IMG/VR virus record: IMGVR_UViG_2585427736_000018
Location: 1-6,498 of that record
Direction: 5' to 3' (one strand)
Source of the DNA: a virus
Taxonomy: Duplodnaviria > Heunggongvirae > Uroviricota > Caudoviricetes
DNA: 6,498 bases
Shown here: piece after piece, positions 1 to 1,385 of the stretch
Position numbering within the stretch: the stretch's first letter is position 1
How the letters are laid out: each line of letters begins with the position of its first letter
Made by a program: the position numbers and the translations under genes
Notes under the pieces: model-generated
The model's database searches: none
What the model was told of the DNA's origin: nothing
Seen by the model: only the letters and a program-made list of their open reading frames with translations

Positions 1-576
1 TTGCATTTGCCAGAGCTTGACGATGTTGCTTGGATGAAGGGTGTATTGATGCTAAATGTAAGGTTTGATTCAGAAAAGGCTTTAGAGGCCATTCTGTACG
101 TCGCCTCTAAAGCACCGATCCCAGATATCTATCATGTCGGAAAAATTCTTTATTATGCTGACAGGTTTCACCTTGAAAGTTTTGGACGCCTCATAACGGG
201 CGATCACTATAACGCTATGAAGGATGGGCCTGTAGCAAGCAACACATACGATATTATAAAAATTGCTCGTGGAGATGGACGTTACATTCCTAATGGTTGT
301 GATGTCGATTCTGTGCGAAAAGCATTTTCTGTATCAGGTATGACGATTGTGCCGAGCCGTGAAGCTGATGAAGACTTTTTTAGTGACTCAGATTTAGAGT
401 GTATTGATAAGTCTATCGCGATGCTTGGAAACATGTCCTTTGAAGCTATCAGAACCATGAGCCATGACGCGGCATGGGAACAGGCAGATCACAATGGTGA
501 GATGTCTTTGGAATCGATAGTTGCACAGCTAAAAAATAGCAAATTAATACTGGATTATCTGAAGAACGGATATTGA
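1..576 (+). CDS. Panacea/DUF4065-domain protein (PanA/SocA/GepA-like putative antitoxin); 5' end may lie upstream of the window
   Basis: Frame 1 is open from base 1 (first codon TTG, first in-window ATG at 34) to stop TGA 574-576. The segment HVGKILYYADRFHLESFGRLITGDHYNAMKDGPVASNTYDII matches the Panacea core pattern as I recall it (K-h-LYYA...G...Y.A...GPV...Y). The C-terminal LECIDKSIAMLGNMSFEAIRTMSHDAAWEQA resembles the family's conserved C-terminal helix. Recognition is from memory, not a search. Confidence 0.6.
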   Translation: MHLPELDDVAWMKGVLMLNVRFDSEKALEAILYVASKAPIPDIYHVGKILYYADRFHLESFGRLITGDHYNAMKDGPVASNTYDIIKIARGDGRYIPNGCDVDSVRKAFSVSGMTIVPSREADEDFFSDSDLECIDKSIAMLGNMSFEAIRTMSHDAAWEQADHNGEMSLESIVAQLKNSKLILDYLKNGY

Positions 577-581
577 TACTT

Positions 582-1043
582 ATGCTGGGTGATTGTTTCC
601 CTCCTGATTTTAAGGCTAATTTTAGTCGTGAAAGAGGTATATCACCCGGTGATGTATTGTATCTTCATTGTGATTTTACGACCCCACCTAAAGTAAAGTA
701 TATGGTGGTTGTTTGCTGTGAACCTCTTTTAGTTCTTCTAATAAATTCAGATATAAATGAATTTATTAAGAGAAACAATGATCTTATGGCTTGTCAGGTC
801 GAAATTAATAGAGAGGACCATGATTTTCTTAAATGGGACTCATTTGTTAATTGCATTGAGGCTCATGCTGCTTTCGATCTTGAAATTATTAAAGAGAAAA
901 TAGCCATCCAATATGGTGACGTGCTAAAAGGTCGCATTACAGATCATTGTATGAGACAAGTTCGATGTGCAGTTGAGATATCTAAAACTATGGTTAAACG
1001 GCATAAAAAACTGATACTCGCTGCTCTTCAACATTATGAATAA
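582..1043 (+). CDS. hypothetical protein, 153 aa; candidate toxin/effector partner of the upstream Panacea-domain gene
   Basis: ATG at 582 lies 5 nt after the upstream stop (in-frame TTG at 573 is the alternative start); stop TAA 1041-1043 sits inside the terminator hairpin. Only a weak GGA Shine-Dalgarno, so translational coupling is likely. Visibly AT-rich. No transmembrane segment or catalytic motif recognised. The toxin role is inferred only from its position beside a Panacea-domain gene. Confidence 0.5.
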   Translation: MLGDCFPPDFKANFSRERGISPGDVLYLHCDFTTPPKVKYMVVVCCEPLLVLLINSDINEFIKRNNDLMACQVEINREDHDFLKWDSFVNCIEAHAAFDLEIIKEKIAIQYGDVLKGRITDHCMRQVRCAVEISKTMVKRHKKLILAALQHYE

Positions 1044-1072
1044 ACCCATCTTTGGATGGGTTTATTCATATT
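1035..1072. terminator. bidirectional intrinsic terminator between convergent transcription units
   Basis: Perfect 16-bp inverted repeat TATGAATAAACCCATC (1035-1050) / GATGGGTTTATTCATA (1055-1070) with 4-nt loop TTTG. GC core CCCATC/GATGGG, with A-rich and T-rich flanks giving a U-rich tail in both orientations. It overlaps the stop of the 582-1043 CDS and lies 7 nt from the stop of the minus-strand 1077-1349 CDS. Confidence 0.7.
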
Positions 1073-1076
1073 CTAT

Positions 1077-1349
1077 TTAAATGAGCCTTTGTTTATGGGT
1101 TCTGACCCTTTCCCACTCAGCACGCCCTTCTTCTCGCCTTTTGTCTATGTATTCCGCAAGATCCTGAATATTGATGCAACGTTTTGCTTTTTGTGATGTG
1201 CCGATGCGATATGTTGGAACGGGCAACTTACAAGCGTTTGCTTTTGCTTCTGCCGTGGCTGGACTCATACCAAAGTACTTTTGGCTAACTGCTGAGAGTT
1301 CAATGTTTGGGGTATTGAATTCAGCCATCAGTAAAAACAAGGTGTTCAT
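1077..1349 (-). CDS. PrtN-family (pyocin-activator-like) small DNA-binding protein; possible excisionase/recombination directionality factor or regulator
   Basis: ATG at 1349-1347 is preceded by GGAG at 6-nt spacing; the ORF track's upstream start at 1376 is a GTG without a better RBS. The N-terminus MNTLFLLMAEF...YIDKRREE resembles PrtN-family proteins found next to integration modules in prophages (recalled similarity). Stop TAA at 1079-1077. Confidence 0.55.
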   Translation of the reverse strand: MNTLFLLMAEFNTPNIELSAVSQKYFGMSPATAEAKANACKLPVPTYRIGTSQKAKRCINIQDLAEYIDKRREEGRAEWERVRTHKQRLI

Positions 1350-1385
1350 AATTTTCTCCATCAAAACCGGCTGCACCCGGGAAAA

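Follow-up and report, generated by a model that had tools for sequence, protein, structure and literature searches.

The window analysed here, a stretch of 6,498 nucleotides at the start of the Caudoviricetes record IMGVR_UViG_2585427736_000018, opens with two adjacent genes, the first of which (ORF1) encodes a Panacea-domain protein and the second (ORF2) a small protein that was at first unrecognizable. This arrangement raises the question of whether the two genes form a toxin–antitoxin (TA) cassette and, if so, whether ORF2 represents a new kind of toxin. Our analysis indicates that the locus is probably a type II-like Panacea TA (PanAT) cassette with a MazF-fold, translation-blocking putative toxin, carried by a prophage as an independently transcribed moron.

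Organization of the cassette and its prophage setting

The initial annotation read ORF1 as a Panacea (DUF4065) protein, and the Pfam search bears this out: PF13274 (SocA_Panacea) matches residues 48–159 of the 191-aa reading of the frame with an E-value of 5e-20 and 73 bits (cut-off 25.7). PHROG 1281 is matched as well (E 1.5e-20), and the RefSeq name is ‘Panacea domain-containing protein’. The NCBIfam equivalog model for SocA, NF047745, gives a weak match (E 0.0027; 17.4 bits, where the cut-off is 190), and the PADLOC-DB 2.0 defence models give none for this protein. The gene originally drawn at 1..576 is real but slightly over-extended, since AAGGG lies 7 nt ahead of the ATG at position 49 and homologues are called at 172–180 aa. 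The true start of this putative antitoxin gene, panA, is therefore probably ATG 49 (49..576, plus strand, 175 aa). The frame itself is open from the first base of the window; in Escherichia coli ACN002 an ATG is found 6 nt upstream of the window, with a TAA just before it. Other possible starts are ATG 34 (180 aa), TTG 7, which is used by RefSeq, and TTG 1. PanA lacks any additional N-terminal domain; behind the Panacea core, roughly 30 C-terminal residues (approximately 145–175) form a tail whose conservation is visible in seven PanA seed sequences.

The putative toxin gene, panT (ORF2), extends on the same strand from ATG 582 to TAA 1043 and encodes 153 aa, in full agreement with the RefSeq annotation (WP_000900143.1); its start codon is backed by the N-termini of ORF2 homologues. 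With the panA TGA at 574–576, the two genes are 5 nt apart, as originally noted. The unit is closed by its own intrinsic terminator at 1035..1070 on the plus strand, which combines a 16-bp stem (5 GC pairs), a 4-nt loop and a T-rich tail (TTCTATTTAA), overlaps the panT stop codon and leaves 7 nt to the stop of the convergent gene. Four terminator-like sites, including this one, were found in the stretch scanned, against 1.2 expected in shuffled sequences. The cassette is AT-rich, with a GC content of 35–43% against 46–51% for the remaining window. We found no operator-like repeats upstream of panA and no Rfam families in the window. A promoter-like TTGACC-18-TAAGAT lies 18–47 nt upstream of the window in E. 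coli ACN002; such sites are not enriched in the scanned stretch.

The convergent gene is the excisionase gene xis (1077..1376, minus strand), a PrtN/AlpA-type gene recognized by PF11112 (E 3.9e-23), by PHROG 1300 ‘excisionase’ (E 6.9e-40) and by RefSeq. The early-left operon of the phage ends with this gene. Since xis and its neighbours, namely genes for a 3′–5′ exonuclease, a DUF551 protein, an Ead/Ea22 protein, a YfdR-like protein and YfdQ/DUF2303, all lie on the minus strand, the cassette converges on this operon, and the earlier statement that it is transcribed against the phage genes is correct. The cassette lies at the edge of a dusA-integrated lambdoid prophage of E. coli, between the att site and xis. 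Of 5426 E. coli genomes, 46 carry the pair and 741 the xis–exonuclease backbone. Searches of the phage collection at the nucleotide level and of plasmids at the protein level gave no match to the locus. In sister prophages, the slot between att and xis holds alternative PanAT cassettes.

Linkage and spread of the pair

PanATs have been delimited by a partner matching PF13274 above threshold, by adjacent genes on the same strand at most 100 nt apart and, functionally, by a toxic partner that co-expressed PanA neutralizes and binds in a complex (Kurata et al., 2022, PNAS 119:e2102212119). Here, the Panacea partner exceeds the threshold (73 versus 25.7 bits) and is separated from ORF2 by 5 nt on the same strand. 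Together with the dedicated terminator, this gives the pair the anatomy of a PanAT, as the initial annotation had proposed. It had also suggested a comparison of the neighbourhoods of ORF2 homologues, which supports the pairing throughout: each of the 12 loci obtained from look-ups of five ORF2 homologues has a Panacea gene directly ahead of the homologue and in the same orientation, and PanA directly precedes the ORF2 relative in 15 of 15 species-representative genomes and in the Serratia phage vB_SspS_OS31. Gene spacing in these relatives ranges from overlaps of 1–8 nt to gaps of 6–43 nt, and the genes that flank the pair differ between contexts.

The pair turned up in Escherichia, Salmonella, Enterobacter, Klebsiella, Rahnella, Photorhabdus, Proteus, Serratia, Atlantibacter, Idiomarina and Pseudomonas, besides the one isolated Serratia phage. 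Both partners diverge together, their identities to the window proteins (PanA/PanT) tracking each other at 84/77, 81/65, 58/60, 52/48, 45/43 and 43/45%. Across relatives, the pair occupies variable prophage slots, among them the P2 gpA–gpQ (gpA–portal) defence hotspot; in Rahnella, it resides in this hotspot next to the PADLOC candidate PDC-S32. Such placement in variable or defence slots fits the prophage moron that had been envisaged for this locus.

A divergent MazF-like protein

The description of ORF2 as unrecognizable holds for libraries of sequence profiles. ORF2 matched no Pfam, NCBIfam or PADLOC model and reached PHROG profiles at noise level only; its best PADLOC-DB 2.0 hit, to PDC-M02B (E 0.016), was treated as noise. 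The Pfam profile PF02452 (PemK_toxin) matched none of 64 diverse members of the ORF2 family, even at E 1, and HMM searches of PDB sequences with two ORF2-family profiles returned no MazF; augmin, bungarotoxin and the other hits were at noise level. The family, of at least 1245 cluster representatives about 150 aa long, has no Pfam model.

The description no longer holds at the level of predicted structure. The confident model of ORF2 has an unambiguous MazF/Kid fold, an SH3-like barrel whose core spans approximately residues 20–135, with extra helices at 100–114 and 139–148 and a poorly modelled N-terminal segment. The suggestion that ORF2 may be a new toxin domain is contradicted by this comparison of folds. 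On the model, ORF2 is a highly divergent MazF/PemK-type putative toxin and, belonging to a group already catalogued in 2022, not a new toxin.

Profile alignment with hhalign agrees with the fold. Against a single MazF sequence, the ORF2 family gave no significant score (E 0.43); against an alignment of 10 MazF sequences, the match was weak (E 0.0015, probability 17%) but in register, pairing LLVLLINS with VIVAAITG, QVEI with HVEI and DSFVNCIEAH with DSVILLEQIRT, and aligning the C-terminal helices as well. The N-terminal third of this alignment is unreliable, even with the -glob option or a low mact.

MazF-type endoribonucleases cleave RNA at specific sequences, independently of ribosomes, and rely on a catalytic Arg (R25 in BsMazF, R29 in EcMazF) and a catalytic Thr (T48 and T52, respectively), which are invariant as R24 and T47 (S. 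aureus numbering) in the MazF alignment used here. Neither residue is kept in the ORF2 family. Instead, 64 family members, with identities down to 28%, all share K39, N55 and S87, and nearly all of them S56. The hhalign comparison places N55 at the position of the Thr. The position of the Arg would be taken by Lys39, at the start of strand 2 (V-K39-Y-M-V-V versus V-R-P-V-V-I), a match that we infer from the strand order of the model, because the N-terminal third aligns unreliably. The invariance of these polar residues at or near MazF active-site positions suggests that a catalytic or ligand site has been kept.

ORF2 can also be connected to a published group of PanTs. WP_054475897.1 of Photorhabdus heterorhabditis, whose PanA is WP_054475899.1, appears among the entries of Dataset S1 as pT5/T5, with the antitoxin gene first (A|T order) and a 3-nt gap, and in that study HHpred relates cluster T5 to EndoA/MazF/PemK at 99.5% (Kurata et al., 2022). 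A homologue of ORF2 (53% identity, E 9e-51) falls in the same 90% cluster as WP_054475897.1, and the genomes of P. namnaonensis PB45.5 and P. khanii NC19, which are among those with listed T5 entries, contain tblastn matches to ORF2 of 54–56%. On account of this shared cluster and these matches, ORF2 would be expected to sit in the same FlaGs cluster, T5. WP_000900143, the protein of E. coli and Salmonella, does not occur among the entries listed in the supplements of the Panacea paper, an absence that proves nothing; nor do WP_000900143 and the other ORF2-family accessions searched occur among the entries listed in the supplement of the NetFlax paper.

Alternative explanations

The observations could also be accommodated if ORF2 were a degenerate MazF-fold protein without toxicity, acting for instance in RNA or DNA binding or in regulation, and the pair a conserved accessory unit of phages rather than a TA system. 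The loss of the canonical Arg and Thr and the lack of any PemK Pfam signal in the 64 members speak for this explanation. It also draws on the non-toxicity in E. coli of several predicted PanTs, among them those of the E. coli MOD1 pair of prophage type and of the pair from Salmonella phage Emek, as well as a MazF-like protein of F. xanthum (Kurata et al., 2022). We nevertheless consider it unlikely: a decayed protein sits poorly with K39, N55 and S87 remaining invariant at or near the active-site positions in members as distant as about 28% identity, or with strict linkage to an antitoxin-type domain in every locus inspected and co-divergence with it. Moreover, the sole T5 member reported as tested in the same work, from Chryseobacterium bovis, was toxic, although its PanA did not rescue it (Kurata et al., 2022). 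The same fold superfamily also includes poisons of DNA gyrase, and a CcdB-like activity on that target instead of an RNase activity appears improbable for ORF2.

The affinity of the antitoxin side with SocA suggests yet another arrangement, a type VI system of the SocAB kind in which PanA would act as a proteolytic adaptor that hands the toxin to ClpXP, rather than as a stoichiometric binding inhibitor. The Pfam family is indeed named after SocA, and the NCBIfam SocA_antitoxin model does give its weak match (E 0.0027), but the score of 17.4 bits falls far below the equivalog cut-off of 190 and ORF2 resembles MazF, not SocB. Stable PanA:PanT complexes have been obtained, including one with a MazF-like toxin, that of Pseudomonas moraviensis (Kurata et al., 2022), and a standalone Panacea domain neutralizes directly (Ernits et al., PMC10440598), so that an adaptor role seems very improbable here. 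The same evidence that made ORF2 look unrecognizable, its failure to match Pfam, NCBIfam, PADLOC or, by HMM, PDB sequences, is what would favour a new toxin fold or domain. Given the confident model with its MazF/Kid fold and the placement of the family in MazF/PemK by HHpred among the 2022 catalogue entries, we regard that reading as barely tenable.

Proposed mechanism and significance

If the locus is a PanAT cassette with a MazF-fold putative toxin, translation of panT, 5 nt downstream, would probably be coupled to that of panA. By analogy with validated MazF-like PanATs, PanT would be toxic, as a translation inhibitor of the endoribonuclease type, and PanA would keep it inactive through direct binding. 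Once PanA is displaced, degraded or not resupplied, free PanT might arrest the cell. The trigger could be a second phage infecting the cell or the prophage being lost, and the outcome would then be phage exclusion or abortive infection, retention of the prophage, or both. Literature searches turned up no study in which a Panacea/MazF-like pair had been assayed for defence against phages.

One can go further, and it is possible, though doubtful, that T5 is a functionally distinct branch of the MazF superfamily, marked by an invariant Lys/Asn-Ser/Ser triad in place of the canonical Arg and Thr and by extra helices, and perhaps acting on another RNA target or with another chemistry, that PanA senses infecting phages in true abortive infection, and that the att–xis slot of this dusA prophage family is a hitherto undescribed hotspot of PanAT swapping.

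Current concepts are left unchanged by this locus, which adds to a published catalogue. It nonetheless provides a prophage-borne example of a PanAT native to E. coli, from a MazF-like cluster, T5, that is not known to have yielded a working TA pair. In the natural host, E. coli, assays of toxicity, rescue, cleavage specificity and phage defence would be free of heterologous artefacts. The alternative PanAT cassettes in the att–xis slot of sister prophages offer, in addition, a natural experiment on partner swapping by Panacea.

Comparison with known systems

Classical MazEF, PemIK and Kis–Kid modules (PF02452) differ from the pair described here in their antitoxin, which is an AbrB/RHH protein of the MazE, PemI or Kis type instead of a Panacea protein. 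Their toxins differ from ORF2 as well: the latter is about 40 aa longer, has extra helices, belongs to a family without a PF02452 match in 64 members, and would carry Lys39, at its inferred position, and Asn55–Ser56 in place of the catalytic Arg and Thr. The type VI system SocAB of Caulobacter shares with ORF1–ORF2 the antitoxin-side domain family PF13274. The two are set apart by the low score of ORF1 against the SocA equivalog (17.4 bits versus 190) and by a MazF-like rather than SocB-like partner, and a proteolytic-adaptor mechanism is not expected for ORF1–ORF2.

Closer parallels are found among the PanATs themselves. The MazF-like PanTs of Pseudomonas moraviensis (T6) and Bifidobacterium ruminantium are toxic, are neutralized by their PanA and specifically inhibit translation (Kurata et al., 2022). 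They resemble the window pair in having a Panacea antitoxin and a toxin that lacks a CDD match and is predicted by HHpred to be EndoA/PemK/MazF-like, whereas their toxins belong to other clusters than ORF2. A relative of ORF2 with 40% identity does adjoin a PanA gene in Pseudomonas mandelii. The nearest relatives are the T5 PanATs, which combine a toxin of the same protein family, assigned to MazF/PemK by HHpred or structure only, with an antitoxin-first order, a gap of a few nucleotides and a PanA that has no N-terminal domain. What distinguishes the ORF1–ORF2 pair from them is its location in a dusA-integrated lambdoid prophage.

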